DNA of 64,000 nt from assembly GCA_963816185.1 (NCBI GenBank), contig CAWFJJ010000006.1:1326-65325 (forward strand), given 5' to 3'. The position numbers and the translations under genes were made by a program. Source of the stretch: Thermoanaerobaculia bacterium (GTDB taxonomy: Bacteria > Acidobacteriota > Thermoanaerobaculia > UBA5066). Below the pieces are notes generated by a model. That model made no database searches, had not been told where the DNA came from, and was given only the letters and a program-made list of their open reading frames with translations. Shown here in pieces: positions 10,101 to 21,149 of this stretch; positions within the stretch are counted from its first letter, which is position 1, and each line of letters begins with the position of its first letter.

Positions 10101-10264
10101 GCCGGACGTCGTTCGTGATCGCCCACAGGCTCAGCACCATCCGCGACGCGGACGTCATCCTCGTCCTGGAGAAGGGACGTCTCGTCGAGCACGGGACTCA
10201 CGACGAGCTGATGGACCGCCAGGGGCTCTACTACTACCTGTCGAGCCAGCAGCTCGGGATCTAG
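7082..10264 (+). CDS. peptidase C39 domain-containing ABC exporter with two N-terminal cyclic-nucleotide-binding-like domains
   Basis: 1060-aa ORF. Two CAP/cNMP-type segments (..GDSFGEMGLL.. and ..GDVFGEISAF..). C39 catalytic motifs QIDEMDCGAASLAMV (Cys) and GGNHWVVLYDV (His). ABC membrane domain, Walker A GRSGSGKTT, signature LSGGQKQR, Walker B VLIFDEATS. Confidence 0.9.
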   Translation: MDMEAVTSKASSAAASEIEAARIFLDDLPLLKFLSPASRAAVTAKFVPVAFPFGAVILREGDPADAFFVVVAGKARAVKTGEQGEEVSLGVLRPGDSFGEMGLLDPSAKRQATVRASSAATVLRLDRNAFDALLSGDPEIRTCLELHVRYRSLQNLFRLYTPFSTLPPSVLAGLLHRFETISVAAGEAVFRQGDGEGPLFVVEEGRLRVFTEDDGHRRNIAYLRKGDVFGEISAFTGEPRKATVEAVTPCRLLSLHPSAFRAVTDAHPEFRAAIGRRIAQYDYRKEARVPLDFADELLPAEAQVEEVGPDQIDEDADRPPDESSAEGSAAPFATEDGRFVKGPRRIRRFRFVRQIDEMDCGAASLAMVCRHFGRAVSLARIRQLLFTSTDGTSLRAVCRGAEELGLAARSVKASARHLDQMPLPAILHWGGNHWVVLYDVSPTEARVADPGVGLRRLPRAEVEKEWTGYAALFDYTEAFEKAPVGRSSFAWLTRFFRPHAGVLAKAAGLALIVSVLQMVLPVFSQVIVDRVLVERDEGLLRILLFGMGGVLVFSTLAMVLQRYLLSFAAVRIDASTLDFVTRRLLSLPMSYFSTRKTGDIQRRLMGLRQVRELLVQYGVSSLTALSQLSAVLILMFVYSPLLAGVFLATVPLYALLMRYSRRRLRPVFDTLEEAFGKYSAQQIDTIKGIETVKSLGAEGSLRQLMLERFLGLARKQFRADFTVMTYEGAVQAVSFLSTALFLWAGAVQVMRGSLTIGGLVAFNTLVALANAPIGILLATWDHLQYGTVLLDRLNDVFEQKPEQGDDRSQLLPVRTLAGKVSLRNVGFRFGGPESPLILDGLTFDVDPGKMVAIVGRSGSGKTTLAKLLSGLMEPTEGSILFDGADLKTLNYRDLRRRVGFVLQENYLFDETIARNIAFGDGEPDVDRVLWAARVASAHEFVERFPLGYDTRVGESGLALSGGQKQRVAIARAVYNRPPVLIFDEATSSLDTESERAVKENLDRLLEGRTSFVIAHRLSTIRDADVILVLEKGRLVEHGTHDELMDRQGLYYYLSSQQLGI

Positions 10265-11466
10265 ATGGACGAGGCGCCGTTCCTCCCGAGCGACCCGCCG
10301 CCCTTCGCGGCCCGGAGCCTCGCATGGCTCCTGATCGCCCTCTTCGCAGTGGCCGCTGTCGTATCGGTGGCGGTCAAGGTTCCCGAAACGGTCGTCGCCC
10401 CGTTCGCCCTTGTGCCCATGCGCGGCACCGATCCGGTTCGCGCTCCGCACGGAGGCACGGTCACGGAGGCTCTTGCCGTCGAGGGGCGCCCCGTGGCCAA
10501 GGGCGCGAGGCTCTTTGCCATCCGGTCGCAGGAGTTCGGGGACAGGGCCTCCGAGCGGAAGGCGCTCGAAGCAGGCCTCGGCGGACTTGCCGAGAGCCTT
10601 TCCAACGCCCGGAAGAGATTCGACAGCGAGGCCGGCGAGAGGCGTGAGGAGGCCCGGAGTCTCGCCGATCGCGCGGCCTATCTCGATCGGATGCTGGCTT
10701 TGAAGAGGGAGCAGCTCGCCTTGACGCTGGAGCAGTCCGAGCGGGCGAAGAAGCTCGCCGACCAGGGGCTCGCGAGCTTCAACGACCGTTCCGACGCCCA
10801 GATCCGGCACAGCCAGACCGTCATGGAGCTCGAGCAGCTCCAGTCCGACCGGAGCGCGACCGGGAGCGCCATCGAGAAGCTTCGCGACACCGAAGCGGCG
10901 AAGGGGACCGAGTTCCACGAGGAGGAGCGGGTCCTCGAGGAGAAGATCGCTCAGGCGAGAATCAGGATCGGCGCGCTCAGCGGGGGGCGCCCTCCGCCGG
11001 CGGAGACGAATCTGGAAACGAGCTGGCCGTCACTTCTCCGTGCGACGGCACCGTTCTCGGCGTCACGGCGCGGCGGGCCGGGGCGGTGGTCCGCGAAGGC
11101 GACGTCCTCGCCGAGGTCGCCTGCTCCGCCGAGACCCTGCAGGCCGAGCTGAGCCTCCCGCAGGGAGGGCTCTCCCGGATCCACCCCGGCCAGAGCGTCC
11201 GCCTCCTCCTCGACGCGTTCCCGTACCAGCGCTACGGCGTCCGCGGGGGAAGGGTCCGGTGGGCCAGCCCCTCCGGGGTCGGGACCCGCGAGGCCGCGAC
11301 CTTCCCCGTCCTCGTCGACCTGGACGAGCAGGCCGTCCCGGCGGACGGCGAGCGCAAGCCGCTCCTGGCGGGAATGCGCGGCACCGCGCGCGTCGTCGTC
11401 GGCCGCCGCACGCTCGTCGAGTACGCCTTCGAGCCTCTCCGGCAGCTTCGGGAGAACCTCCGGTGA
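10265..11466 (+). CDS. HlyD-family membrane-fusion/adaptor protein, reading frame interrupted once
   Basis: The ATG abuts the exporter stop (TAGATG). The N-terminal ~240 codons (TM helix LAWLLIALFAVAAVV, long coiled coil) are in one frame. The C-terminal barrel part (NELAVTSPCDGTVLGVTARRAGAVVREGDVLAEV...GMRGTARVVVGRRTLVEY) is in another. The two join only if the run GGGGGG at 10982-10987 gains or loses one G. Confidence 0.75.
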
Positions 11467-11532
11467 CGCGGAAGAGCTTCGCTCGACGCGACGCAACTCA
11501 CGCTCGAGACCTTCCGGAGCGCCGACGCCGCG

Positions 11533-12438
11533 ATGCGCCGCTGCCTCGACGTGGCGCGTGCCGCCTGCCGGACCGAGCTTCCGCTCCTCCTCCTCGGCGA
11601 GTCGGGGACCGGAAAGACGCTCCTCGCCCAGGCGATCCACAACTCCTCTCCGAGAGCGTCGGCTCCCTTCGTCTCCTTCAACGCCGCGGCCCTCTCCGAC
11701 ACGCTCCTCGACAGCCAGCTCTTCGGCCACGAGAAAGGGGCGTTCACGGACGCCAAGCAGCCGCTGCGCGGCAAGTTCGAGGTCGCCGACGGCGGGACCC
11801 TCTTCATCGACGAGATCGCCGACATGAGCCCGCTCGCCCAGGCGAAGATCCTCCGGGCGGTCGAATACGGAGAGTTCGAGAGGCTCGGATCCGAGCGGCT
11901 CCGCAAGGCGGACGTCCGCCTGATCTCGGCCACCCGCCACCCGCTGGAGCGGTTTGCGAACACCGAGCAGTTCCGGAGCGATCTCTTCTACAGGCTCGCG
12001 GGGCTCACCGTCACCCTTCCCCCGCTGCGCGAGCGGCCGAACGACCTGCGCGAGCTCGTCGCGGCCTCGATCCATCGCGCCGCTCACGCACAGGGACGGA
12101 CCATCTCCGGTCTCTCCCAGAAGGCCGCCGATGCCCTTTTCTCGTATCACTGGCCCGGGAATCTCCGGGAGCTCGACCTCGTCATCCACGCCGCAGTCGC
12201 GATGACCGAGGGCTCGGTGATCGAGGAATTTGCGATCCTGGTCCGAAACAACGGCGGGCCCGGGACGTCCCCTTCCGCCGCGCGGCCGGTCCCTGCGGCC
12301 GACCTGAGCCTCCGGGCCGTCGAGCGAGACCACATTCACCGGGTCCTCCGGGAGCTCGGGGGGAACAAGACGAGGGCCGCCAGGACCCTCGGCATCTCGC
12401 GCTCCCGCCTCGAGAGGAAGCTCAACGACGCGAAGTGA
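11533..12438 (+). CDS. sigma-54-dependent transcriptional activator (bEBP) lacking an N-terminal sensory domain
   Basis: 301-aa ORF. AAA+ core GESGTGKT, GAFTDA (GAFTGA variant), LFIDEIADM, WPGNLRELD. C-terminal Fis-type HTH NKTRAARTLGISRSRLERKL. Only ~22 in-frame codons separate the HlyD stop from the first ATG, so there is no room for a receiver, GAF or PAS module. Confidence 0.85.
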   Translation: MRRCLDVARAACRTELPLLLLGESGTGKTLLAQAIHNSSPRASAPFVSFNAAALSDTLLDSQLFGHEKGAFTDAKQPLRGKFEVADGGTLFIDEIADMSPLAQAKILRAVEYGEFERLGSERLRKADVRLISATRHPLERFANTEQFRSDLFYRLAGLTVTLPPLRERPNDLRELVAASIHRAAHAQGRTISGLSQKAADALFSYHWPGNLRELDLVIHAAVAMTEGSVIEEFAILVRNNGGPGTSPSAARPVPAADLSLRAVERDHIHRVLRELGGNKTRAARTLGISRSRLERKLNDAK

Positions 12439-12573: not shown

Positions 12574-12589
12574 TGGAACGGTCCTTGCT
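12574..12589 (+). promoter_or_regulatory. sigma-54 (-24/-12) promoter heading the peptide-gene array
   Basis: TGGAAC-GGTCC-TTGCT. GG (12575-76) and GC (12587-88) have the canonical 12-nt register of TGGCAC-N5-TTGC. Located 135 nt downstream of the bEBP stop and 42 nt upstream of the first leader-type RBS and start. Confidence 0.6.
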
Positions 12590-12630: not shown

Positions 12631-12772
12631 GTGAACCACGAAGAAAACCCCCTCGGGCTTCTACAAGAAGGCGGTGAAGGACCTCGACGTCAAGCCCGCC
12701 AAGGTGACGTCCGCCCGGGCGTCCAGTCTCGAACCGGCCGTCAGCGACCGCGAAGAAGGCGAAGAACCGATC
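12631..12772 (+). pseudogene. decayed copy of the Lys-rich leader peptide gene
   Basis: Preceded by the family RBS (GAAAGGAGAAACGAC-GTG). The nucleotide sequence aligns to the leader consensus only with several small indels. The motif KDLDVKPAK is readable only in a shifted frame and both GG motifs are lost. Confidence 0.5.
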
Positions 12773-12913
12773 ATGAAGAAGACCCCGAAGAAAAGCGCCC
12801 GGACAAGCTTCTCAAAGAAGACGCGGTCAAGGACCTCGCACCAAGCTCCGCCAAGGGCAGGCGGCACGAGGCGGCACGGGAAGGTCTGTGACAGGGGTGG
12901 ATCGAGCATCTGA
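12773..12913 (+). pseudogene. divergent or decayed leader-peptide gene copy (46-codon ORF still open)
   Basis: MKKTPKKSARTSFSKKTRSRTSHQAPPRAGGTRRHGKVCDRGGSSI. The N-terminus (MKKTPKK) and C-terminus (..RGG-SSI) match the family, but the central AVKDLxxKPAKGG block is encoded out of frame (DAVKDLAPSSAKG in another frame). Confidence 0.4.
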
Positions 12914-12968: not shown

Positions 12969-13190
12969 ATGAAGACGGGCCGCCGCAAGACGAAGCCGTC
13001 GCCGGGGTTCGTCCCCCTCAGGGACCTCGTCCCCCGAAACGACCCCAAGGGCGGGTCGGCCGGGAAGACGGTATTCGGTGAACGTCCCCCGATCGCTCGA
13101 GACAGAAGAAAAGCACCCCTTCAAGGATGTTCCGGCCGAACGAAGGCAGAAGCCGGGTCACGACCGAAACAGGAAGAAAGGAGAAACGCC
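12969..13190 (+). repeat. R-element copy 1 (Arg-rich ORF MKTGRRKTKPSPGFVPLRDLVPRNDPKGGSAGKTVFGERPP.., fused in frame to precursor A by a 1-nt difference)
   Basis: ~225-nt element shared with 5 other copies. It ends in the conserved box CCGGCCGAACGAAGGCAGAAGCCGGGTCACGACCGAAACAGGAAGAAAGGAGAAACG plus the start codon of the next gene. Confidence 0.7.
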
Positions 13191-13376
13191 ATGAAGAAGA
13201 CCACGAAGAAAAGCTCCTCGAAGGCCTCTCACAAGAGAGCCCGCAAAAACCTCGACGTCACGCCTGCCAAGGGCGGGACCGTCCGGGGAGGCGGCAAGGC
13301 GGGCTCGGGCAGGACTACTGTCAGCGACCTCCAGATCAGCAAAGTTGTCGACAAGAGTTCAGCCGTGCTGTTCTGA
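13191..13376 (+). CDS. precursor peptide A: MKKTTKKSSSKASHKRARKNLDVTPAKGGTVRGG / GKAGSGRTTVSDLQISKVVDKSSAVLF
   Basis: ATG preceded by AAAGGAGAAACGCC. 61 codons. Family leader plus a 27-residue C-terminal part. Confidence 0.8.
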   Translation: MKKTTKKSSSKASHKRARKNLDVTPAKGGTVRGGGKAGSGRTTVSDLQISKVVDKSSAVLF

Positions 13377-13399
13377 GAGCGACCTGCTCGAAGACTGGC

Positions 13400-14542
13400 A
13401 TGGTACGGCTTCCGACGATCCCGGACACTCCCGCCAAAGGCCCGGCTCCGCTCCATGCACGCTGGCTCGAAGAGGCCCTCGGGGGAAAGATCCCCTCCGA
13501 GCCCCACGCCACGTGCGAGAGCTGCCCCATGCTCCCTGTGCCCGGCGGCGCGGACGGGGCCCGGGACGCGGTCTTCTTCAATCCCAAGACGAAGTGCTGC
13601 ACCTACCTGCCGAGGCTTCACAACTTTCTCGTCGGCGCGATCCTGGCAGACGAGGCGCCCGACATGGCCGAAGGGCAGGCGCGCGTTCTCGAGAGGATCG
13701 GAAAAAGGGTCGGCGTGACGCCGCTTTGGGTCGGCGCCGGTGGAGCGTACAGCCTCATGTACGACCACGGTGACGGGGTCTTCGGCCACAGCGAGGCGAT
13801 GCGCTGCCCCTACTACCTCGAGGATCGGATCGGCGGCGGCTGCGGGATATGGCGTCACCGCAATTCCATCTGCATGACCTGGTTCTGCAAGCACGAGCGC
13901 GGGGCCCGGGCGCTGCGGTTCTGGGACTCGGCCAAAGAGCTGCTGATGGCCGTCGAGGAGAACCTCGCGATCCACTGCCTCGTCACCCTCGGTTTCGACG
14001 ACGCGGCGCTCCGGACCAATTTCCCGTTCAAGGTTCCGAAGTCTCAGCGGACGGAAACCGTGAAGGGGGACGAGCTCGACGGCACGGTGAGCCCCGAGAG
14101 GTACAAGGCCCTCTGGGGAAGCTGGGCTGGCCGCGAGAAGGAGCTCTACCTCCTAAGCGACGGGATCGTCCGGAACATGGAGTGGAAGGACGTCGAGCGA
14201 ATCGGCGGCGCGAACGTCGCTCTCCTCTCGCAGCTCGCACGCGCTGCCTACCAGACGGCAGCCAGCGACGCTCTTCCGGAGCGCCTCGAAATCGGCAACC
14301 TCAACGTCATCGGCGCCGGGCGTAAGACCGTGCGCCTCGGCACCTACAGCCCATACGACCCCATCGATGCTCCTGCCGCGCTTCTTCCGGCATTGCCCGC
14401 CTTCGACGGCTCCAGGGTACCCGACGCCCTCCGCGCGATCGAGAAGGATCATGGGCTCGTCCTGAGCCCCGAGCTCGTCCGAAAGCTCGTCGACTACGGC
14501 CTGCTCCGCGCGGTGACCGCCCCCGAAGACGAGCGAGTCTAA
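13400..14542 (+). CDS. Cys-rich protein, paralogue 1 (YkgJ/FliB-like CxxC...CC metal-cluster motifs); candidate peptide-tailoring enzyme
   Basis: 380 codons from ATG 13400 within ORF 13127..14542, 23 nt after precursor A. Conserved Cys pattern C-ESC...KCCTYLPRL...MRCPYYLEDRIGGGCGIWRHRNSICMTWFCKHE. The CPYYLEDRxxxxC...RxxxC block resembles the PF03692 (CxxCxxCC / flagellin lysine-N-methylase FliB) family as I remember it. Confidence 0.7.
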   Translation: MVRLPTIPDTPAKGPAPLHARWLEEALGGKIPSEPHATCESCPMLPVPGGADGARDAVFFNPKTKCCTYLPRLHNFLVGAILADEAPDMAEGQARVLERIGKRVGVTPLWVGAGGAYSLMYDHGDGVFGHSEAMRCPYYLEDRIGGGCGIWRHRNSICMTWFCKHERGARALRFWDSAKELLMAVEENLAIHCLVTLGFDDAALRTNFPFKVPKSQRTETVKGDELDGTVSPERYKALWGSWAGREKELYLLSDGIVRNMEWKDVERIGGANVALLSQLARAAYQTAASDALPERLEIGNLNVIGAGRKTVRLGTYSPYDPIDAPAALLPALPAFDGSRVPDALRAIEKDHGLVLSPELVRKLVDYGLLRAVTAPEDERV

Positions 14543-14605
14543 CCAGAACTCGATGAGAAGGCCGAAGCCGGGTCATGAACAAATCAGGGCAAAAGGAGAA
14601 ACGAC

Positions 14606-14737
14606 GTGAAGAAGACCACGAAGAAAAGCCCCTCGAAGGCATCTCACAAGAAGGCGGTCAAGAACCTCGAGCTCAAAACGGTTAAGAGCGGGACGGTCCG
14701 AGGAGGAGTACCCGCGGTCCAAAAGTCAGGGAGATAG
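14606..14737 (+). CDS. precursor peptide B: MKKTTKKSPSKASHKKAVKNLELKTVKSGTVRGG / VPAVQKSGR
   Basis: GTG start 6 nt after AAAGGAGAAACGAC. 43 codons. TAG stop at 14735. Confidence 0.8.
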   Translation: MKKTTKKSPSKASHKKAVKNLELKTVKSGTVRGGVPAVQKSGR

Positions 14738-14747
14738 GAGGAGCAAC

Positions 14748-14885
14748 ATGAAAAAGATCGCGAAGAAGGGCGCCCCGAAGGCCTCTCACAAGAAATCGGT
14801 CAAGGACCTCGAGATCAAGCCCGCCAAGGGCGGGACGGGCGAGACGGTCCGTGGCGGCAAGATGATCGACAAGATCCACATCTGA
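14748..14885 (+). CDS. precursor peptide C: MKKIAKKGAPKASHKKSVKDLEIKPAKGGTGETVRGG / KMIDKIHI
   Basis: ATG after GGAGGAGCAAC. 45 codons. Leader carries the 3-residue insert GET. Confidence 0.8.
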   Translation: MKKIAKKGAPKASHKKSVKDLEIKPAKGGTGETVRGGKMIDKIHI

Positions 14886-14921
14886 CGAGCGCCGCCTGCT
14901 GCAAGGATCGCCCGACCTTCG

Positions 14922-15145
14922 ATGATGAAGACAGGCCGCCGAGGACCAAGCCGTCGCCGGGGGTTCGTCCTCCTCAGAGATCTCATCCCTCGAAACGACC
15001 CCAAAGGCGGGTCGGCCGGGAAAACGGTATTCGGTGAACGTCCCACGGTCCTCGAGACAGAAGAAAAGCACCCCCATGAGGATGTTCCGGCCGAACGAAG
15101 GCAGACGCCGGGTCACGGCCGAAACAGGAGGAAAGGAGACACGAT
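14922..15145 (+). repeat. R-element copy 2 (intact 75-codon ORF 14922..15149: MMKTGRRGPSRRRGFVLLRDLIPRNDPKGGSAGKTVFGERPTVLETEEKH...)
   Basis: Same element as 12969, 15772, 16505, 18386 and 18945. The ORF stop overlaps the precursor D start (ATGA). Confidence 0.7.
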
Positions 15146-15286
15146 ATGAAGAAGACCACGAAGAAGACCCCGAAGGCCTCGCACAAGAAGGCGGTCAGGA
15201 ACCTCGACGTCAAGCCCGCGAAGGGTGGAACGGTCCGTGGCGGAATACATGGTGGCTGGGACCAGCTCGCGAACAAGAAAGTTTGA
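15146..15286 (+). CDS. precursor peptide D: MKKTTKKTPKASHKKAVRNLDVKPAKGGTVRGG / IHGGWDQLANKKV
   Basis: ATG after AAAGGAGACACGAT. 46 codons. Confidence 0.8.
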   Translation: MKKTTKKTPKASHKKAVRNLDVKPAKGGTVRGGIHGGWDQLANKKV

Positions 15287-15373
15287 GTTCCTGGAACACC
15301 CTTCTTAGAAAGTCCGGTCGAACGAAGGTAGAAGCCGGGTCACGACCGAAACAGGAAGTAAGGAGAAGACGTC

Positions 15374-15520
15374 ATGAACAACCCCAAGAAGAAGAGCGCC
15401 TCGAAGGCCTCCCACAAGAGGAAGGTGAAGGACCTCGAGATCAAGCCCGCCAAAGGAGGGACCGTCCGTGGAGGCAAGGTCTTTCCCAAGGTGACCACGG
15501 GTTTGCTCGACAAGTACTAG
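15374..15520 (+). CDS. precursor peptide E: MNNPKKKSASKASHKRKVKDLEIKPAKGGTVRGG / KVFPKVTTGLLDKY
   Basis: ATG after GTAAGGAGAAGACGTC. 48 codons. Confidence 0.8.
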   Translation: MNNPKKKSASKASHKRKVKDLEIKPAKGGTVRGGKVFPKVTTGLLDKY

Positions 15521-15596
15521 CGAGGCTGAAGTTACCCCTTTCGTCGCGCGACCTCGCGCTCGGTCACGACCGAAACAGGAAGAAGGGAGACACGAC

Positions 15597-15734
15597 ATGA
15601 AGAAGAACGCGAAGAAGAACCCTCCGAAGGGTTCCCGAAAGAACGCAATCAAGGACCTCGAGATCAAGCCCGCCAAGGGCGGGACGGACGGGACGGTCCG
15701 TGGCGGCAAGTTCGAGACCAAGATCCACATCTGA
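15597..15734 (+). CDS. precursor peptide F: MKKNAKKNPPKGSRKNAIKDLEIKPAKGGTDGTVRGG / KFETKIHI
   Basis: ATG after AGAAGGGAGACACGAC. 45 codons. Leader insert DGT. Confidence 0.8.
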   Translation: MKKNAKKNPPKGSRKNAIKDLEIKPAKGGTDGTVRGGKFETKIHI

Positions 15735-15771
15735 CGAGGGCCGCTTGCCGTAAGGGCCGATCGGCCCCTCG

Positions 15772-15996
15772 ATGATGAAGACAGTCCGCCGAGGACCAAG
15801 CCTTCGCCAGGGATTCGTTCCCCTCAGGGACCTCGTGCCCTGAAACGACCCCAAGGGGGGGTCCGCTGGGAAGACGGTATTCGGCGAACGTCCCCCGGTT
15901 TCCGTGACAGAAATGACACAGCGCTTCCAGGATGTTCCGGCCGCACGAAGGCAGAAGCCGGGTCACGGTCGAAACAGTAAGTAAGGAGAAGACGTC
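15772..15996 (+). repeat. R-element copy 3 (ORF interrupted by TGA at 15841: MMKTVRRGPSLRQGFVPLRDLVP*)
   Basis: Nucleotide-level homologue of the other R copies, but with an in-frame stop inside the otherwise conserved PRNDPKGG block. Confidence 0.65.
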
Positions 15997-16128
15997 ATGA
16001 ACAACCCCAAGAAGAAGAGCGCCTCGAAGGCTTCCCACAAGAAGACGGTCAAGAACCTCGAGGTCACGCCCGTCAAGGGCGGGAAGGTCCGTGGGGGCTT
16101 CCCGACGCCATGGAAAAACAAGGTCTAA
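15997..16128 (+). CDS. precursor peptide G: MNNPKKKSASKASHKKTVKNLEVTPVKGGKVRGG / FPTPWKNKV
   Basis: ATG after GTAAGGAGAAGACGTC. 43 codons. Confidence 0.8.
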   Translation: MNNPKKKSASKASHKKTVKNLEVTPVKGGKVRGGFPTPWKNKV

Positions 16129-16174
16129 TGCCGCCCGAAATGACGCGCGAATCCAGAAGAAAGGAGAAACGAAC

Positions 16175-16306
16175 ATGAAAAAGACCTCGAAGAAGAGCGC
16201 CTCGAAGGCATCTCACAAGAAGGCGGTCAAGGACCTCGAGGTCAAGCACGCCAAGAGCGGGACGGTTCGCGGAGGACTGCCCCCCGGTCCACCAACCTAC
16301 AAATGA
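16175..16306 (+). CDS. precursor peptide H: MKKTSKKSASKASHKKAVKDLEVKHAKSGTVRGG / LPPGPPTYK
   Basis: ATG after GAAAGGAGAAACGAAC. 43 codons (3' part of ORF 16091..16306). Confidence 0.8.
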   Translation: MKKTSKKSASKASHKKAVKDLEVKHAKSGTVRGGLPPGPPTYK

Positions 16307-16327
16307 GTGGACAAAATGAGAACCGAC

Positions 16328-16453
16328 ATGAAGAAGACCACGAAGAAAGACCCTTCGAAGGCCTCTAAGAAGAAGGCGGTCAAAAACCTCGAGGTCAAGC
16401 CCGCGAGGGGTGGAACGGTCCGCGGAGGCTGGGACCCGACCAAAGCGCGATAG
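16328..16453 (+). CDS. precursor peptide I: MKKTTKKDPSKASKKKAVKNLEVKPARGGTVRGG / WDPTKAR
   Basis: 41 codons. No obvious SD. An in-frame ATG at 16316 would add MRTD. Starts 22 nt after precursor H. Confidence 0.7.
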   Translation: MKKTTKKDPSKASKKKAVKNLEVKPARGGTVRGGWDPTKAR

Positions 16454-16504
16454 CGTCGAAACGAGTCACTCGAAACGACCCCTTCTCCGAAAGTGAACCG
16501 CGAG

Positions 16505-16725
16505 ATGAAGACAGGCCGCGGTAAGACAAAGCCCTCGCCGGGGTTCGTCCCCCTCAGGGACCTCATCCCCCGAAACGATCCCAAGGGCGGGTCGGCCGGG
16601 AAGACGGTATTCGGCGAGCGTCCCCCGGTCCTCGAGGCAGAAGAAAAGCACCCCTTCAAGGATGTTCCGGCCGAACGAAGGCAAAAGCCGGGTCACGACC
16701 GAAACAGGAAGAGAGGAGAGACGAC
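16505..16725 (+). repeat. R-element copy 4 (ORF 16493/16505..16729: MKTGRGKTKPSPGFVPLRDLIPRNDPKGGSAGKTVFGERPPVLEAEEKH...)
   Basis: Belongs with copy 1 to a subclass that differs from copies 2, 5 and 6 by a compensated pair of 1-nt indels near the 5' end. Preceded by two TCGAAACGA boxes (16456, 16470). Confidence 0.7.
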
Positions 16726-16914
16726 ATGAAGAAGAACACGAAGAAGACAGCCTCCAAGGCAAAGGGGCCCAAGGCGACGAAGAATCTCGACGTCAAGCCC
16801 GCCAAGGGCGCGAAGGTCCGTGGTGGAACTGTAAACAAGGGGTGGATCGAAGTTTCATCCTTCAGTTTTAATGCGGAACCCACCGTCAGTGTGACCGCGA
16901 AGAAGCCGTCCTGA
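16726..16914 (+). CDS. precursor peptide J: MKKNTKKTASKAKGPKATKNLDVKPAKGAKVRGG / TVNKGWIEVSSFSFNAEPTVSVTAKKPS
   Basis: 62-aa ORF in the track. RBS GAGAGGAGAGACGAC. Stop overlaps the GT41 start (TGATG). Confidence 0.8.
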   Translation: MKKNTKKTASKAKGPKATKNLDVKPAKGAKVRGGTVNKGWIEVSSFSFNAEPTVSVTAKKPS

Positions 16915-18386
16915 TGAGCACCGGCTGGCCGAAGGGCTGCCGCATGCTCGCGGCGGGCAAGTATGCGAGCGGCCTCGCGGCCTTCGAACCGGCCGTCCGG
17001 GCGAGTCCGGACTCTGCGGCCGCACGATTCCACCTCGCCCGGGCGAGCTTCGCCCTAGGGGAGGTCGAGAGGGCGACCCGGCAGCTTCGGGCGGCACTCC
17101 GGATCCGCACGGATATCCGAGCTCTGCGGTTCCTGGCCACGATCGCCCCGTTCGACCCGCGCCTCGACCACGCGGCGATCCTGAAGGTCCGCCGCGCGCT
17201 GGCCGCTGCGGTTCGCGCTCGAACCGTCGCGCCCGCCAGGGCGATCGTCGTCGGGAGCCCGGCCAGGAAAGTGCTCAAGGTTGGCTACGTCTCGTCTTTC
17301 TTCGACAAGGACAACTGGATGAAGCCGGTGTGGGGGCTGATCGATCACCACGACGCCAAGAGGGTGGAGATCCACCTTTTTGCCGACGTGCCGCGCGTTT
17401 CTGCGGTGCGTCGGCGGGCGCGTGCGAGCGCGGCGCACGTCCACGACATCTCGCGCCTTGACAACGATGTGGCCGCGCGGCTGATCGCCCGGACGGGGCT
17501 CGACGTCCTCGTGGATCTCAATCAGTACAGCCGGGTCGGCCGGATGCCGCTTTTTTCGACCAGGCTGGCGCCGGTCGTCGTCGCGTGGTTCAACATCTTC
17601 GGGACCTCGGGAATGCCGGTTTTCGACGCGCTGATCGGCGATCGATGGCTCGTCCGCGACGTCGAGAAGCCTTGGTACCTCGAAAAGATCGTGAAACTCC
17701 CGTTCTCGTCGCTGACTTTCGCGGTGGACTATCCGGTCCCTGACGTCGGGCCGCCGCCTTTCTTGCGCAACGGCTTCGTCACGTTCGGAAGTCTTTCGTC
17801 GCTGTACAAGCTCAACGACGGCGTCGTCGGCACCTGGGCCGACATTCTGAAGCGGAGCCCGGGAAGCCGTCTTCTCCTGGGCAATGCGGATCTGGGAGAC
17901 CCCGGCAACCGAGCGCACACTCTCGAGCGATTCACCGCGCGCGGGATCGAGCCCGCGCGCGTCACGTTGCTCGGGCCCGACGAGCACTACGAGTTTCTCC
18001 GAAACTACGACGCGATTGACCTCGCTCTCGACACGTTCCCCTACAACGGAGGCACGACGACCACCGAGGCGATCTGGCAAGGAGTCCCGGTCGTCGCGTT
18101 CTTGGGGGACCGGTGGATCTCGCGTACCAGCGCCTCCCTGCTGGAAAACGCCGGTCTTGAGGGCTTCGTCAGCCGGGACGTCCGCGGTTATGTCGAAACG
18201 GCCGTCCGGTGGGGGTCGGGAGCAAAGGCGGAAGAACGGAGAGAGCTCCGCCGCACGATGAGGAAACGCCTGAAAGCCTCACCCGTCACCGACTGCGCGA
18301 GCCTCGCGCGCTGCATCGAGGACGCTTACGTCCAATTGTGGGGCGCGAGGACTCGCTCCGCTCTCCCTCAGCGGATGACAGCGTGA
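16914..18386 (+). CDS. TPR-containing GT41-family glycosyltransferase (OGT/SPINDLY-like)
   Basis: 490-aa ORF. N-terminal TPR-like helices. C-terminal block VTFGSLSSLYKLND...LLLG...IDLALDTFPYNGGTTTTEAIWQGVPVVAF matches the GT41 catalytic-domain signature (DTFPYxGxTTxxxALWxGVPVV). Confidence 0.85.
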   Translation: MSTGWPKGCRMLAAGKYASGLAAFEPAVRASPDSAAARFHLARASFALGEVERATRQLRAALRIRTDIRALRFLATIAPFDPRLDHAAILKVRRALAAAVRARTVAPARAIVVGSPARKVLKVGYVSSFFDKDNWMKPVWGLIDHHDAKRVEIHLFADVPRVSAVRRRARASAAHVHDISRLDNDVAARLIARTGLDVLVDLNQYSRVGRMPLFSTRLAPVVVAWFNIFGTSGMPVFDALIGDRWLVRDVEKPWYLEKIVKLPFSSLTFAVDYPVPDVGPPPFLRNGFVTFGSLSSLYKLNDGVVGTWADILKRSPGSRLLLGNADLGDPGNRAHTLERFTARGIEPARVTLLGPDEHYEFLRNYDAIDLALDTFPYNGGTTTTEAIWQGVPVVAFLGDRWISRTSASLLENAGLEGFVSRDVRGYVETAVRWGSGAKAEERRELRRTMRKRLKASPVTDCASLARCIEDAYVQLWGARTRSALPQRMTA

Positions 18387-18606
18387 TGAAGACAGGCCGT
18401 CGAGGACCAAGCCGTCGCCGCGGGTTCGTCCTCCTCAGAGATCTCGTCCCCCGAAACGATCCCAAGGGCGGATCGGCCGGGAAGACGGTATTCAGCGAGC
18501 GTCCCCCGGTCCTCGAGACAGAAGATAAGCATCACCTTAAAGATGTTCCGGCCGAACGAAGGCAAAAGCCGGGTCACGACCGAAACAGGAAGAAAGGAGA
18601 AACGAC
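18386..18606 (+). repeat. R-element copy 5 (ORF 18386..18610: MKTGRRGPSRRRGFVLLRDLVPRNDPKGGSAGKTVFSERPPVLETEDKHHLKD...)
   Basis: The ATG overlaps the GT41 stop (TGATG). The stop overlaps the precursor K start (GTGA). Confidence 0.7.
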
Positions 18607-18741
18607 GTGAAGAAGATCACGAAGAAAGGTCCCTCGAAGGCCCCCAAGAAGAGGACGACGAAGAATCTCGACGTCAAGCCCGCCAAGGGCGGGACGATCC
18701 GCGGGGGGAGCCTCCCCCGACAGTGGAAGTGGATCGAGTGA
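18607..18741 (+). CDS. precursor peptide K: MKKITKKGPSKAPKKRTTKNLDVKPAKGGTIRGG / SLPRQWKWIE
   Basis: GTG after AAAGGAGAAACGAC. 44 codons. Confidence 0.8.
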   Translation: MKKITKKGPSKAPKKRTTKNLDVKPAKGGTIRGGSLPRQWKWIE

Positions 18742-18776
18742 CGCCGGCCGACGGCCAGAAGGAAAGGAGAAACGCC

Positions 18777-18908
18777 ATGAAAAAGACCACGAAGAAGAAC
18801 CCTCCGAAGGTGTATCGAAAGAAGGCAATCAAGGACCTCGAGATCAAGCCCGCCAAGGGCGGGACGGGCGAGACAGTCCGTGGCGGCAAGGATAAGATCC
18901 ACATCTGA
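18777..18908 (+). CDS. precursor peptide L: MKKTTKKNPPKVYRKKAIKDLEIKPAKGGTGETVRGG / KDKIHI
   Basis: ATG after GAAAGGAGAAACGCC. 43 codons. Leader insert GET as in precursor C. Confidence 0.8.
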   Translation: MKKTTKKNPPKVYRKKAIKDLEIKPAKGGTGETVRGGKDKIHI

Positions 18909-18944
18909 CGAGAGCCGCTTCCTGCAAGGACCGCCCGATCCTCG

Positions 18945-19168
18945 ATGATGAAGACAGGCCGCCGAGGACCAAGCCGTCGCCGGGGGTTCGTCCTCCTCAG
19001 AGATCTCGTCCCCCGAAACGATCCCAAGGGCGGGTCGGCCGGGAAGACGGTATTCGGCGAGCGTCCCCCGGTCCTCGAGACAGAAGATAAGCATCACCTT
19101 AGAGATGTTCCGGCCGAACGAAGGCAGAAGCCGGGTCACGACCGAAACAGGAAGAGAGGAGAAACGAC
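18945..19168 (+). repeat. R-element copy 6 (ORF 18945..19172: MMKTGRRGPSRRRGFVLLRDLVPRNDPKGGSAGKTVFGERPPVLETEDKHHLRD...)
   Basis: Near-identical to copies 2 and 5. Most differences from them fall on third codon positions of this frame (manual comparison). Confidence 0.7.
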
Positions 19169-19312
19169 GTGAAGAAGATCACGAAGAAAGGTCCCTCGAA
19201 GGCTTCCAAGAAGAGGACGACGAAGAATCTCGACGTCAAGCCCGCCAAGGGCGCGACGGTTCGTGGCGGAGTGCATGGCGGTTGGGACCAGATCGCGAAC
19301 AAGAAGATTTGA
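19169..19312 (+). CDS. precursor peptide M: MKKITKKGPSKASKKRTTKNLDVKPAKGATVRGG / VHGGWDQIANKKI
   Basis: GTG after AGAGGAGAAACGAC. 47 codons. Confidence 0.8.
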   Translation: MKKITKKGPSKASKKRTTKNLDVKPAKGATVRGGVHGGWDQIANKKI

Positions 19313-19393
19313 GTTCCTGGAACACCCTTCATAGGTCTGGTCGAACCACTACAAGCCGGGTTACGACCGAAACAGGAAGAGAGGAGACACGAC

Positions 19394-19537
19394 ATGAAGA
19401 AGAACACGAAGAAGACAGCCTCCAAGGCAAAGGGGCCCAAGGCGACGAAGAACCTAGAGGTCAAACCCGCCAAGGGGGCGTCGGTCCGTGGCGGAGTGCA
19501 TGGTGGCTGGGACCAGGTCGGGAACAAGAAGTATTAG
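19394..19537 (+). CDS. precursor peptide N: MKKNTKKTASKAKGPKATKNLEVKPAKGASVRGG / VHGGWDQVGNKKY
   Basis: ATG after AGAGAGGAGACACGAC. 47 codons. The stop abuts the Cys-rich paralogue 2 ORF. Confidence 0.8.
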   Translation: MKKNTKKTASKAKGPKATKNLEVKPAKGASVRGGVHGGWDQVGNKKY

Positions 19538-20782
19538 TTGCCCTCTGATCAAGTGACCTCTCCGAAGACCCGCGCGGTCCGGCTCCCGTCGATCACCGAT
19601 GCTCCCGCCAGGGGCCTGGCACCGCTTCATGCGCGCTGGCTCGAGGCGGCGCTCGGGGGCAAGATTCCTTCCGAGCCACACGCGGCGTGCGACAACTGCG
19701 CGATGCTGCCGGTGTCCGGAGGCGCGGATGAAGAGCGCGGCGCAGTCTTCTTCAACCCCAGGACGAAGTGCTGCACTTACCTGCCGAGACTTCACAACTT
19801 TCTCGTCGGGGCGATCCTCGCAGACGAAGCGACCGATATGGCCGAAGGGCGTGCCCGCGTCCTGGAGAGGATCGGGAAGAAGGTCGGCGTGACGCCGCTC
19901 TGGGTCGGCGCCGGCGGCGCGTACAGCCTCGTGTACGACCACGGAGACGGGGTCTTCGGCCACAGCGAGGCGATGCGCTGCCCCTACTATCTCGAAGACC
20001 GGATCGACGGCGGCTGCGGGGTGTGGCGTCACCGCAATTCCATCTGCATGACCTGGTTCTGCAAGCATGAGCGCGGGGCCCCGGCGCTGCGGTTCTGGGA
20101 CTCGGCCAAAGAGCTGCTGATGGCCGTCGAGGAGAATCTCGCGATCCATTGCCTCGTCACTCTGGGTTTCGACGACGCGGCGCTCCGGACCAATTTCCCG
20201 TTCAAGGTTCCGAAATCTCAGCGGTCGGAAACCGTGAAGGGGGACGAGCTCGACGGCACGGTGAGCCCGGAACGATACAAGGCTCTCTGGGGGAGCTGGA
20301 CGGGCCGCGAGGAGGAGCTCTACCGCCAATGCGACGCGATCGTCCGAGACATCGAGTGGAAGGACGTCGAGCGCATCGGCGGCGCGAGCGTCGCACTCCT
20401 GTCGCAGCTCGCGCGCGCGGCCTATCAGGCGGTGATCCGTGACGACCTTCCCGAGCGGCTCGAGATCGGCAATCTCAGCGTCATCGGCACGGGGCGCGGG
20501 ACCTTGCGCCTGGCCACGTACAGCGCCTACGACCCCATCGACGCCCCGGCCGCGCTTCTCCCCGTGCTTCCCGCGTTCGACGGCTCCAGGGTGCCCGACG
20601 CCCTTCGCGCGATCGAAAGGGACCATGGGCTCGTCCTGAGCCCCGAGCTCGTCCGAAAGCTCGTCGACTACGGCCTGCTCCGCGCGGTGGACGCCCCCGA
20701 AGACGAGCAAGTCTGGCGAAACTCCATGAAAAGGCGGAAGCCGGGTCATCGCCAAAACAGGATGAAAGGAGAAACGACATGA
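19538..20782 (+). CDS. Cys-rich protein, paralogue 2 (YkgJ/FliB-like motifs)
   Basis: 414-aa ORF. Start is TTG 19538 or GTG 19553. About 47 substitutions over ~378 aligned residues versus paralogue 1 (manual count), and all 9 Cys of paralogue 1 are conserved. It lacks the stop used by paralogue 1 and reads 22 codons further, ending in an ATGA overlap with precursor O. Confidence 0.7.
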   Translation: MPSDQVTSPKTRAVRLPSITDAPARGLAPLHARWLEAALGGKIPSEPHAACDNCAMLPVSGGADEERGAVFFNPRTKCCTYLPRLHNFLVGAILADEATDMAEGRARVLERIGKKVGVTPLWVGAGGAYSLVYDHGDGVFGHSEAMRCPYYLEDRIDGGCGVWRHRNSICMTWFCKHERGAPALRFWDSAKELLMAVEENLAIHCLVTLGFDDAALRTNFPFKVPKSQRSETVKGDELDGTVSPERYKALWGSWTGREEELYRQCDAIVRDIEWKDVERIGGASVALLSQLARAAYQAVIRDDLPERLEIGNLSVIGTGRGTLRLATYSAYDPIDAPAALLPVLPAFDGSRVPDALRAIERDHGLVLSPELVRKLVDYGLLRAVDAPEDEQVWRNSMKRRKPGHRQNRMKGETT

Positions 20783-20910
20783 AGAAGATCACGAAGAAAG
20801 GTTCCTCAAAGGCTTCCAAGAAGAAGGCGGTCAGGAACCTCGACGTCAAGCCTGCGAAGGGCGGGACGGTCCGTGGAGGGGCAACCAGACTCGACAAGTG
20901 GCCCGGGTAG
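20779..20910 (+). CDS. precursor peptide O: MKKITKKGSSKASKKKAVRNLDVKPAKGGTVRGG / ATRLDKWPG
   Basis: ATG after GAAAGGAGAAACGAC. 43 codons. Confidence 0.8.
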   Translation: MKKITKKGSSKASKKKAVRNLDVKPAKGGTVRGGATRLDKWPG

Positions 20911-20934
20911 ACGCTTGGCGGCCGGCAGCACGCG

Positions 20935-21149
20935 AGGCCGGCTACGCGGTACTTCCGCGCGAAGAGCGTGAGCCGCGCGGAGAGGTGGAGAAGCTGAGCG
21001 AGCTGCGTCGCACGATGAGGATACGGTTGCGGGCTTCGCCGGTCACCGATTGCCCAAGGCTCGCGCGCCGCATGGACGATGTCTACCTCCGGCTATCGGG
21101 CGCGAGCCCTCGTCGGAAACGACCCCGGGCCGCGCTCCCGCGTAATTGA
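20935..21149 (+). pseudogene. C-terminal remnant of a second GT41 glycosyltransferase gene
   Basis: ..ELRRTMRIRLRASPVTDCPRLARRMDDVYLRL.. aligns to the last ~45 residues of the intact GT41 protein (ELRRTMRKRLKASPVTDCASLARCIEDAYVQLW). Nothing corresponding to the TPR or catalytic parts precedes it. Confidence 0.7.

Follow-up and report, generated by a model that had tools for sequence, protein, structure and literature searches.

How does an operon come to hold many tandem peptide genes behind a shared leader, and how long ago did it take this form? The question is raised by an 8.6-kb sigma-54-driven operon (12.57–21.15 kb) in the window, i.e. the 64,000-nucleotide stretch of DNA analysed here, from the genome of an uncultured Thermoanaerobaculia (Acidobacteriota). 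The original prediction described a locus evolving by recent block duplication, core diversification and decay. We consider it probable that the array is a single operon which was amplified and reshuffled module by module, through putative recombination and relocation of core cassettes, and whose products would be handled by candidate maturases and a C39 exporter.

The operon and its genes

Upstream of the peptide genes lie those of a sigma-54 activator, an HlyD adaptor and an ABC exporter with a C39 peptidase and an N-terminal cNMP-binding domain. The top NCBIfam model for the exporter is TIGR03796 (NHLP bacteriocin exporter), with 527 bits for a cut-off of 853. The HlyD gene carries a probable homopolymer frameshift (G-run at 10984), which means that single-base "decay" in the array, that of R1 for instance (see below), could be a sequencing error. 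The array contains a single sigma-54 (−24/−12) promoter-like site, TGGAACGGTCCTTGCT (12574–12589, on the plus strand like all the features described hereafter), and the motif TGGAAYGGnnCTTGCT is conserved 5' of the first precursor in the related loci L001, L003 and L087.

The array comprises 15 intact and two decayed precursors of the double-glycine-leader type, six copies of a 74-residue open reading frame (R), two Cys-rich paralogues (Cys1 and Cys2), one intact TPR-GT41 glycosyltransferase and one GT41 3' relic. The decayed precursors occupy 12635–12913: A0, from 12635, has neither an in-frame start nor VRGG and shows deletions of 5, 3 and 4 nt compared to l1, its intact orthologue in L001 (the nearest genome), and B0 (12772–12913) is frameshifted. 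The intact precursors are A (13191–13376), B (14606–14737), C (14748–14885), D (15146–15286), E (15374–15520), F (15597–15734), G (15997–16128), H (16175–16306), I (16328–16453), J (16726–16914), K (18607–18741), L (18777–18908), M (19169–19312), N (19394–19537) and O (20779–20910). J is identical to P0146 and its stop overlaps the start of the GT41 gene. Neither NCBIfam nor Pfam has a model for the leader family, and the cores are devoid of Cys.

The R copies are 80–97% identical. R2 (14925–15149), R4 (16505–16729), R5 (18386–18610; directly 3' of GT41, as in the relatives) and R6 (18948–19172) are intact. R1 (12969–13190) undergoes a +1 frameshift after codon ~42 and reads into precursor A, and R3 (15775–15999) is a pseudogene in which codon 23 has become an in-frame TGA (from CGA) and another stop is present. 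The idea that R is a spacer was rejected: it is a conserved 74-aa gene, and the changes between its copies are mostly synonymous, at third positions.

Cys1 (13400–14542) encodes 380 residues, with an 8-Cys N-terminal domain and a C-terminal RRE-like domain; Cys2 (19553–20782) encodes 409 residues from a GTG start, with a 23-codon C-terminal extension. The eight Cys are invariant in the family (spacing CxxC...CC...C...C...C....C, about 370 aa), as in the CxxCxxCC proteins of the YkgJ/FliB type (PF03692, putative zinc-/iron-chelating), to which 5 of 20 family members are weakly matched (best E 0.0033). However, the window's own proteins have no PF03692 match at E ≤ 1, and the family has the RRE-like domain in addition. 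The N-terminal domain has no match among solved structures. The intact glycosyltransferase (16914–18386, 490 aa) matches PF13844 (E 3.6e-35) and PF14559; TPR-GT41 is the family of OGT and HMW1C/NGT.

Among RiPPs, arrays of several precursors that combine a conserved leader with variable cores are known from the prochlorosins (ProcA), the cyanobactins (PatE-type cassettes) and the NHLP/Nif11-leader families with C39-peptidase ABC export. The array resembles them in its many tandem small genes with a near-identical, GG-ending leader and short divergent cores, in the C39-peptidase ABC exporter and HlyD adaptor close by, and in the conserved leader's apparent role as the site of duplication and recombination. 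It differs from them in its leader family without a model, in its cNMP-binding, below-cut-off exporter, in its repeat unit, which is a four-gene module including the conserved 74-aa peptide, in its putative maturases, where a Cys-rich/RRE protein and a GT41 enzyme take the place of LanM, a cyclodehydratase or a radical-SAM enzyme, and in the presence of Hcp fragments as several of its cores. Glycocins (sublancin and glycocin F, for example) are GG-leader bacteriocins that are glycosylated by a dedicated glycosyltransferase of GT2. There too, a locus for GG-leader peptides and a peptidase-ABC exporter includes the glycosyltransferase gene, but the window's enzyme is a TPR-GT41, its cores are Cys-free, and glycosylation is putative.

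Repeated modules and core cassettes

Repeat pairs were compared inside the window by self-BLASTN, global alignment and tblastn. The three repeats originally predicted are all present, in direct orientation, and reach past the leader-coding segments: the diagonals cross the Cys-rich genes, the R elements, the spacers and some cores. By global alignment, 14748–15373 and 18777–19393 are 87% identical over aligned bases (85% with gaps counted). The self-BLASTN diagonal is longer than predicted, since it adds the upstream precursors B/K and the downstream E/N leaders (B-C-R2-D-E, 14557–15474, against K-L-R6-M-N, 18558–19494; 78.5% over 955 columns). Cys1 and Cys2 (13400–14542 against 19553–20712) are 87.6% identical, and the corresponding BLASTN diagonal, A-Cys1-B against N-Cys2-O (13150–14706 against 19353–20879; 83% over 1565 columns), begins in the 5' UTR of A/N and extends as far as the final codon of the B/O leader. 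For these two pairs, BLAST E values of 0 to 1e-150 rule out chance. The third repeat was announced between 18230–18386 and 20935–21149; its secure part is shorter (18226–18355 against 20983–21112, 74% over 131 nt) and 20935–20983 aligns weakly. A 5'-truncated GT41 copy does exist: the relic (20983–21149, at the array end) corresponds to residues ~440–486 of GT41, and residues 444–486 are 60% identical at the protein level to 21000–21143 (tblastn E 1.2e-9). It would be what a deletion left behind, or would mark a duplication breakpoint inside GT41.

Repeats pervade the array: self-BLASTN gives 98 direct diagonals, of which those of the three pairs are the strongest. The module, consisting of R and up to three GG-leader precursors (0.55–0.85 kb), occurs six times, and A0-B0-R1-A, B-C-R2-D, K-L-R6-M, H-I-R4-J and F-R3-G match at 74–82%. 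The youngest tract, the sole young one and missing from the original list, joins R5 and the K leader (18384–18707) to R6 and the M leader (18946–19269), with 95.7% identity over 324 nt, and stops exactly at GG. The view of a locus built from duplicated blocks is borne out, for tandem R-plus-precursor modules as well as for larger blocks that contain a Cys gene; so is decay, in the broken elements A0, B0, R1, R3 and the GT41 relic.

The supposed decay of Cys2 does not stand. Its stop has been lost (TAA to TGG), but the gene does not run into precursor O as a fusion: a TGA follows 23 codons on and overlaps the ATG of O, which is in a different frame (ATGA, 20779–20782). The ATG of Cys2 is also lost (GCG at 19574), and the GTG at 19553 is a start that the relative P0002 uses as well. 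C-terminal tails of 20–35 aa are usual for the Cys-rich proteins of the clade. Cys2 keeps 8/8 invariant Cys, its 409-aa product is called by the source gene caller, and both copies are under purifying selection (dN/dS 0.165).

Core diversification was only partly right. Leaders reach 92% identity for K/M and J/N, 90% for F/L and 89% for E/G, and core types persist as several copies, HGGWDQxxNKK being common to D, M and N and K..KIHI to C, F and L; some are conserved Hcp segments. Cores are found behind non-cognate, unrelated leaders. Precursor N is chimeric: a J-type leader (92%) is joined to a core of the type found in D and M, and its 3' flank is that of the ancestral precursor upstream of Cys. 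Tracts of high identity and block limits coincide with conserved 5' UTR/leader sequences and go no further than the GG junction. The sequences indicate that cores are swapped as cassettes at this junction, instead of being diversified by point mutation.

An unexpected observation is that 5 of the 15 cores (A, J, D, M and N) are successive fragments of Hcp/TssD (PF05638), the tube protein of type VI secretion. The core of A, GKAGSGRTTVSDLQISKVVDKSSAVLF, corresponds to PF05638 positions 36–67 (E 1.1e-3), and 24 of 27 residues are identical to positions 45–71 of P0121; the core of J holds an Hcp strand (KGWIEVSSFSF), and that of D corresponds to the Hcp C-terminus. With about 20 bits, single peptides stay under the Pfam gathering threshold of 23.5, whereas the cores concatenated collinearly score 65.8 bits (E 6e-18). 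Hcp segments also occur in l2, l3, l4 and l9 of L001 and in cores of L085 and L087. Unlike Hcp itself, the array peptides hold 10–30 Hcp residues behind a secretion leader, and a full Hcp fold is impossible.

Age and origin of the duplicates

L001 has 9–10 precursors, two R, two Cys and one GT41. In L085, L086, L087 and L088 the arrangement is simple (activator, P, GT41, R, P, P, Cys), with one copy of each; L003 has no GT41, and L093 has, in another context, R, an HGGWD-type precursor, a PAVQKS-type precursor and Cys. The number of copies thus differs from one genome to another. The notion of a "second unit" around Cys2 is complicated by position, since Cys2 lies in the conserved order GT41, R, P, P, Cys and the extra material relative to the relatives is the 12.97–16.7 kb stretch, which holds Cys1. 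By sequence, on the contrary, the relatives' single Cys is orthologous to Cys1 (dS 0.22–0.29, compared to 0.36–0.45 for Cys2), even though Cys2 holds the ancestral slot. In a neighbour-joining tree, the window's Cys1 (wCys1) and LCys1 cluster together, with wCys2 immediately outside this pair.

That the assembly created the repeats, by collapsing or expanding a repeat or by forming a chimeric contig, is most improbable. The source is apparently a long-read metagenome, with the window proteins on one 87.6-kb NCBI/ENA contig, and the HlyD frameshift is of the homopolymer type; but the copies differ by 4–26%, far beyond read-error confusion, each has its own cores and flanks, their differences are mostly synonymous (dN/dS 0.17), which is the signature of evolution and not of error, and paralogous copies and several R-ORFs occur in the relatives' independent assemblies. 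That R would be a structured non-coding RNA or regulatory DNA, the array being precursors separated by cis elements, is very unlikely. R is indeed more conserved than the adjoining coding DNA, its RNAalifold consensus fold is stable (−56 kcal/mol), and in its 3' third it overlaps the following precursor's Shine-Dalgarno sequence and conserved 5' UTR. However, the covariation term is just −0.25 kcal/mol, with double changes in 4 of 57 pairs, an Rfam search gave no match, third codon positions hold most substitutions and paired +1/−1 indels restore the frame. Moreover, 15 database homologues keep a length of 73–75 aa, and the motif L(R/K)DLxPRxDxKGG..K.(V/I/L)FG(E/D/Q) is found again in distant phyla.

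The duplications had been called recent. A strain-level event, with copy number polymorphic among close strains, is unlikely: the young R5-K/R6-M tract and the differences in copy number between available genomes would fit it, but the three pairs are 12–26% diverged, and the comparison involves relatives of other species (flanks 87–89% identical), not strains. The dS of Cys1/Cys2 (0.40, 95% bootstrap 0.31–0.50) equals that of orthologues in the nearest genomes (0.32–0.46; ABC 0.32–0.37, sigma-54 activator 0.33–0.43; flanks against L001 0.34–0.46), L001 already has two Cys copies, and the relic resembles the window's GT41 (74%) no more closely than the relatives' (77–80%). The duplicates noted originally date from roughly the time when the nearest sequenced relatives split off. 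It is possible, although we doubt it, that Cys1 is a xenologue, acquired with its block from a related lineage by homologous recombination via leader/R sequences. The dS of wCys1-LCys1, 0.22 (0.17–0.28), is significantly under that of the flanking orthologues, 0.36 (0.31–0.40), which is equalled by wCys2-LCys1 (0.36) and wCys1-wCys2 (0.40); R1 is the R copy nearest to Ra of L001 (91%), and the Cys1 block lies within the stretch absent from the relatives. On the other hand, the dS of wCys1 to the L085 Cys (0.29) is only slightly under the baseline, with overlapping confidence intervals, comparable genomes number three, gene-specific synonymous constraint can lower dS, and the array-wide module repeats mean that in-situ amplification is certainly at work. 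Inter-lineage exchange may have occurred besides in-situ duplication, given the low wCys1-LCys1 dS.

A model for the array

In the amplification and reshuffling that we favour, the near-identical UTR, leader and R sequences would serve as sites of unequal homologous recombination and of gene conversion, by which modules would be duplicated, deleted and re-paired, and core cassettes would be relocated, not mutated into novelty. The Cys-rich putative maturases may use their RRE-like domain to bind the shared leader and, together with GT41, would modify the cores before the step carried out by the C39 exporter, which is predicted to cleave after VRGG and then to export the peptides.

Genes and putative promoter of the array

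Small genes on the plus strand fill the region from 12.6 to 20.9 kb, according to an ORF listing and a motif scan. They encode peptides in which a common basic leader, MKKTTKK..K(N/D)L(D/E)VKPAKGGTVRGG, precedes a core of 6 to 28 residues. Fifteen of these precursors are intact: A (13191-13376), B (starting at 14606), C (14748), D (15146-15286), E (15374), F (15597), G (15997), H (16175), I (16328), J (16726-16914), K (18607), L (18777), M (19169-19312), N (19394-19537) and O (20779). Two decayed precursors, A0 (12635) and B0 (12772), are located upstream of them on the same strand. The array also includes two paralogous Cys-rich genes, Cys1 (13400-14542) and Cys2 (19553-20782), six R elements of about 225 nt each (12969, 14925, 15775, 16505, 18386 and 18948) and the gene of a TPR-GT41 glycosyltransferase (16914-18386), whose scores of 121.7 bits against PF13844 (E 3.6e-35, cut-off 25) and 36.7 bits against PF14559 place it in the GT41 family.

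Upstream of the array are the genes of a cNMP-binding/C39-peptidase ABC exporter (7082-10264), an HlyD adaptor (10265-11466) and a sigma-54 activator (11533-12438). The features of C39-peptidase ABC transporters (PF03412, PF00664 and PF00005) were found on the 92%-identical orthologue of the exporter; the array is thus adjoined by an ABC transporter with an N-terminal C39 peptidase and by its adaptor, as in PCAT systems. The best NCBIfam match of the exporter, TIGR03796, scores below the cut-off of that family, and the adaptor matches TIGR01843. The leader is closed by V/I-R-G-G in all fifteen intact precursors, as in double-glycine (GG) leaders. It has hydrophobic residues at -4 (Val/Ile) and -12 (Val/Ile/Leu), and in the fifteen intact precursors it lacks the canonical ones at -7 and -15, which makes it atypical. 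A run of G in the HlyD gene (10984) is one nucleotide shorter than in L001, the locus of the nearest genome (a Thermoanaerobaculia MAG), and the adaptor is split into two ORFs. The deletion reflects either an error in homopolymer sequencing or a true frameshift, and it calls for caution when single-base changes in the window are read as decay.

A sigma-54 motif, TGGAAYGGnnCTTGCT, precedes the first precursor (12574-12589) and is conserved in L001 (7305) and in two loci of other genomes, L003 (7330) and L087 (798). The -24/-12 pattern is found only once in the 8.6-kb array, at 12574, which suggests that the array is one long sigma-54-dependent operon; the idea that the R elements are repeated sigma-54 promoters was rejected on the same ground. 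The matches of a terminator scan are almost all on the minus strand and were discarded as by-products of the AAG-rich leaders.

The R elements, previously described as repeats, are by their pattern of variation copies of a gene for a conserved 74-aa peptide. Indeed, the differences between copies are mostly at the third codon positions of one frame, and +1 and -1 indels that are 18 nt apart restore this frame. The ORF reads MKTGRR..GFVPLRDLVPRNDPKGGSAGKTVFGERPPV..AERRQKPGHDRNRKKGETT, its terminal TGA overlaps the start of the next precursor, and its product carries the motif LRDLVPRNDPKGG-SAGKTVFGERP. Each of the two copies in L001 was called as a gene. Fifteen homologues of 73-75 aa are present in the protein database, and homologues of this length are known from metagenomes; the motif also occurs in loci of Acidobacteriota, Methylomirabilota and Gemmatimonadota, where the Cys-rich gene, the exporter and the activator are present too. 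In the window, R1 has a +1 insertion and its frame runs into precursor A, and codon 23 of R3 is changed from CGA to TGA (nonsense). That R is a structured RNA was rejected in favor of a coding ORF: no Rfam match was found in 10-24 kb at E ≤ 1, and the stable fold given by RNAalifold has almost no covariation.

Duplicated modules and their age

Self-BLASTN of 12-22 kb gives 98 direct diagonals, which include the three repeats of the original prediction: precursors C to D against L to M, Cys1 against Cys2, and the 3' end of the GT41 gene against a remnant downstream. Over the extents then proposed, the identities are 87%, 87.6% and 74%. The first two blocks are in fact longer (14557-15474 against 18558-19494, 955 columns, 78.5%; 13150-14706 against 19353-20879, 1565 columns, 83%) and the third is shorter (18226-18355 against 20983-21112, 74%). 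The Cys genes and the R-ORFs, as well as spacers and some of the cores, lie on the diagonals of 1565, 955 and 324 nt; the similarity is thus not confined to the leader-coding segments, and the proposal of tandem block duplication is borne out. The decay of parts of the locus is also real, as is the truncated GT41 copy, which tblastn detects over residues 444-486 of the enzyme (E 1.2e-9). The core of O (LDKWPG) was considered as a fused GT41 fragment (GDRWIS), for which the alignment upstream of 20983 is too weak a basis. The copies diverge by 4-26%, mostly through synonymous differences, and paralogous copies are also present in independent assemblies of relatives; both observations speak, indirectly, against an assembly artefact.

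The array is built of modules, each made of an R-ORF and up to three precursors after it. R1 precedes A, B and C, with Cys1 inserted; R2 precedes D, E and F; R3 precedes G, H and I; R4 precedes J and then GT41; R5 precedes K and L; and R6 precedes M, N and O, with Cys2 inserted. By self-BLASTN, [A0 B0 R1 A], [B C R2 D], [K L R6 M] and [H I R4 J] match one another, as do [C R2 D], [F R3 G] and [L R6 M], at 74-82%. The third members C, F and L are homologous: 85-90% identity is found among their leaders, which share a GT(G/D)(E/G)T insertion and precede cores of the form K..KIHI. Short GC-rich inverted repeats separate the third precursor of a module from the R-ORF after it (14886-14924, 15735-15774 and 18909-18947; e.g., GGGCCGATCGGCCC after F). 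Every scenario for the full order of events, by tandem duplication or by permutation, needs extra steps, so no order is asserted. The growth of a multi-precursor array by block duplication and decay is expected and is ordinary by itself.

The duplications had been called recent, which their synonymous divergence does not support. In a codon alignment, Cys1 and Cys2 share 87.5% identity, with a dS of 0.40 (0.31-0.50) and a dN/dS of 0.165. The orthologues in the window and L001 have similar dS values (0.36 for the ABC exporter, 0.34 for the sigma-54 activator and 0.46 for GT41), and the same three genes give 0.32-0.51 against L085, a locus of another genome; the compared genomes differ by 11-13% in conserved genes. 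The Cys duplication thus dates back to about the time when these genomes diverged. Moreover, Cys1 is nearer to its counterparts in L001 (LCys1, dS 0.22) and L085 (0.29) than to Cys2; for Cys2, the corresponding values are 0.36 and 0.45. In a neighbor-joining tree, Cys2 branches just outside the pair formed by Cys1 and LCys1. L001 also has two Cys copies, the second of which is not the orthologue of Cys2 (dS 0.45). The GT41 relic shares 74% identity with the GT41 gene of the window and 77-80% with those of relatives, and therefore gives no sign of a recent copy. There is one young tract, 18384-18707 against 18946-19269 (95.7% by self-BLASTN), which pairs R5 and the K leader with R6 and the M leader and ends at the GG codon.

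The position of Cys1 can be explained in two ways. In the relatives, the order is simple: L085, L086, L087 and L088 have the activator, one or two precursors, GT41, R, two precursors and Cys; in L001 this order is extended downstream by another R and another Cys, and L003 is without GT41. L093, in a different genomic context, has R, an HGGWD-type precursor, a PAVQKS-type precursor and Cys. The window keeps the conserved order in the stretch from GT41 and R5 to R6, M, N and Cys2, and the R1-R4 stretch, which contains Cys1 (12.97-16.7 kb, about 3.8 kb), corresponds to only 0.2-0.7 kb in relatives; the copy closest in sequence to the Cys genes of relatives is nevertheless Cys1. A block may have been copied upstream, with divergence of the resident copy, or the Cys1 block may have been replaced through recombination with a related lineage. 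Replacement would also account for the low dS between Cys1 and LCys1 (13400-14542 against 10001-11143 of L001): the value of 0.22 (0.17-0.28) is significantly below that of the flanking orthologues, 0.36 (0.31-0.40), a hint that lineages recombined in this block. The downstream boundary of the array differs too: an acyl-CoA dehydrogenase gene comes after the GT41 relic in the window, and an M20 peptidase gene and a VWA gene are found there in L001 and L003.

Paralogue 2 had been predicted to be degenerating, to have lost its stop and to run into precursor O. The stop is indeed lost (TAA to TGG), and the frame crosses the spacer for 23 codons; it ends at the TGA of ...ACATGAAG, which overlaps the ATG of O in a different frame, and thus does not enter O. 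The ATG of Cys1 is GCG in Cys2, and a GTG is found seven codons upstream (19553), where Cys1 has GCG; the protein P0002 of a relative starts likewise (MTSPKTR.VRLP), and the source annotation called the 409-aa product. C-terminal tails of 20-35 aa are also found in relatives. As Cys2 keeps every invariant residue, including eight cysteines, and the dN/dS is low, paralogue 2 is, as far as its sequence tells, a working gene that is not decaying.

Probable exchange of leaders and cores

That the cores simply diversify, as had been assumed, is not supported. D, M and N share their core, and their leaders are only 75-79% identical; the junction is at the GG. M consists of the leader of K (92%) and the core of D; similarly, N consists of the leader of J (92%) and the D/M core (VHGGWDQVGNKKY), and at its 3' end, the last codon and the flank align with the L001 precursor that precedes Cys. 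The homology blocks start in the common 5' UTR (..GCCGGGTCACGACCGAAACAGGAAGAAAGGAGAAACGAC ATG) and end at VRGG. Cores would be moved by unequal recombination and gene conversion between the conserved UTR and leader segments. The array provides a resolved example of a four-gene module with recombination that is probably guided by UTR, leader and R, in which whole cores would be exchanged at the GG junction and events are dated against orthologous loci.

Hcp-like cores and putative maturation proteins

Some of the cores resemble segments of Hcp, the tube protein of type VI secretion systems. The core of A and cores of relatives (RAFVGFGDIKGESTDKDHKDWVV and LTITKHIDKASPKLYDSLS) fall on successive parts of PF05638 (T6SS_HCP), with E values from 1.6e-4 to 0.027. 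Single precursors score 15-22 bits, below the gathering threshold of 23.5, and cover 20-30 profile positions, so the peptides are Hcp fragments and not full-length Hcp proteins; an artificial collinear concatenation of cores scores 65.8 bits. In pairwise comparisons with real Hcp sequences, controlled by shuffling, A, J, D, M and N reach significance, and so do precursors l2, l3, l4 and l9 of L001. Precursors of L085 and L087 also have Hcp fragments as cores. The core of A corresponds to Hcp residues ~45-71, that of J to the KDWIEVxSFS strand, and those of D, M and N to the C-terminal GWDxxxNKK. The other ten window cores are not significant in this test, which leaves the assignment of C/F/L, E, G, I and K to Hcp strands unsupported.

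Many database peptides of 48-74 aa combine a GG or NHLP-type leader with the N-terminal hairpin of Hcp, and some of them are named Hcp by their sources; examples of such "Hcp in pieces" occur among proteins P0130-P0178. In Bradyrhizobium sp. Ash2021 (CP100604.1), four GG-leader peptides, with leader types that differ from that of the array, carry four different Hcp segments (L094, 6001-7187). In another MAG, three such peptides adjoin a TPR-GT41 that is 41% identical to that of the window (L096/L097, 5645-8055). The literature search returned no paper on Hcp fragments behind leader peptides or on the motif GDIKGES, and nothing relevant on RiPPs with GT41 or double-glycine peptides of Acidobacteria.

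The Cys-rich family has 219 matches in the protein collection and relatives in 228 loci among GTDB species representatives, and no Pfam domain is assigned to it. In a subset of these loci, from three phyla, the cNMP-C39-ABC exporter, HlyD and the sigma-54 activator are also present, and the one locus inspected in detail, L081, also has precursors with the same leader type. In this distant locus, which belongs to a Rokubacteria MAG, the exporter, activator and Cys-rich gene are likewise present, and the precursors (11105-11942, minus strand) have cores such as LPAVQKVREAAQVAFNDSKI. A PAVQK start is common to precursor B (VPAVQKSGR) and to a precursor of L093 (IPAVQKSAR), and presumably resembles the N-terminal helix of pilin-like proteins.

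At default thresholds, neither the precursors nor the R-ORF nor the Cys-rich proteins have a match in Pfam or NCBIfam. The CxxCxxCC family PF03692 matches five of 20 Cys-rich family members weakly (best E 0.0033) and does not match the window proteins themselves. The N-terminal domain with its eight cysteines has no solved relative when the family profile is compared with the sequences of solved structures. The C-terminal domain (residues ~295-371) has, in a confident structural model, the strand and helix order of a PqqD-like RiPP recognition element (RRE), a fold of three strands in a sheet and three helices. Foldseek gives no significant match in the PDB; TbiB1, LynD and TigE are listed, all with E above 0.5. 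We infer that the Cys-rich protein is a leader-binding maturase.

A tentative reading, which we hold to be possible rather than probable, is that the array represents an undescribed class of peptides, predicted to be exported, in which bacteriocin-type leaders carry single β-strand segments of Hcp. Such peptides would be expressed from the sigma-54 promoter, with GT41 and a new CxxCxxCC-like/RRE enzyme family as their maturation enzymes, and their repertoire would arise by module duplication and leader-guided cassette exchange. They could possibly interfere with the assembly of the tube protein of competitors, or form a split, secreted Hcp-like assembly. 

The locus itself has the look of a leader-peptide export system in a variant not yet described. 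For its combination of a Cys-rich/RRE-like family, TPR-GT41 and Hcp-fragment cores, the searched libraries contain no described counterpart. Should the Hcp-fragment peptides prove functional, peptide natural products would be connected with the biology of type VI secretion in a way that is directly testable.
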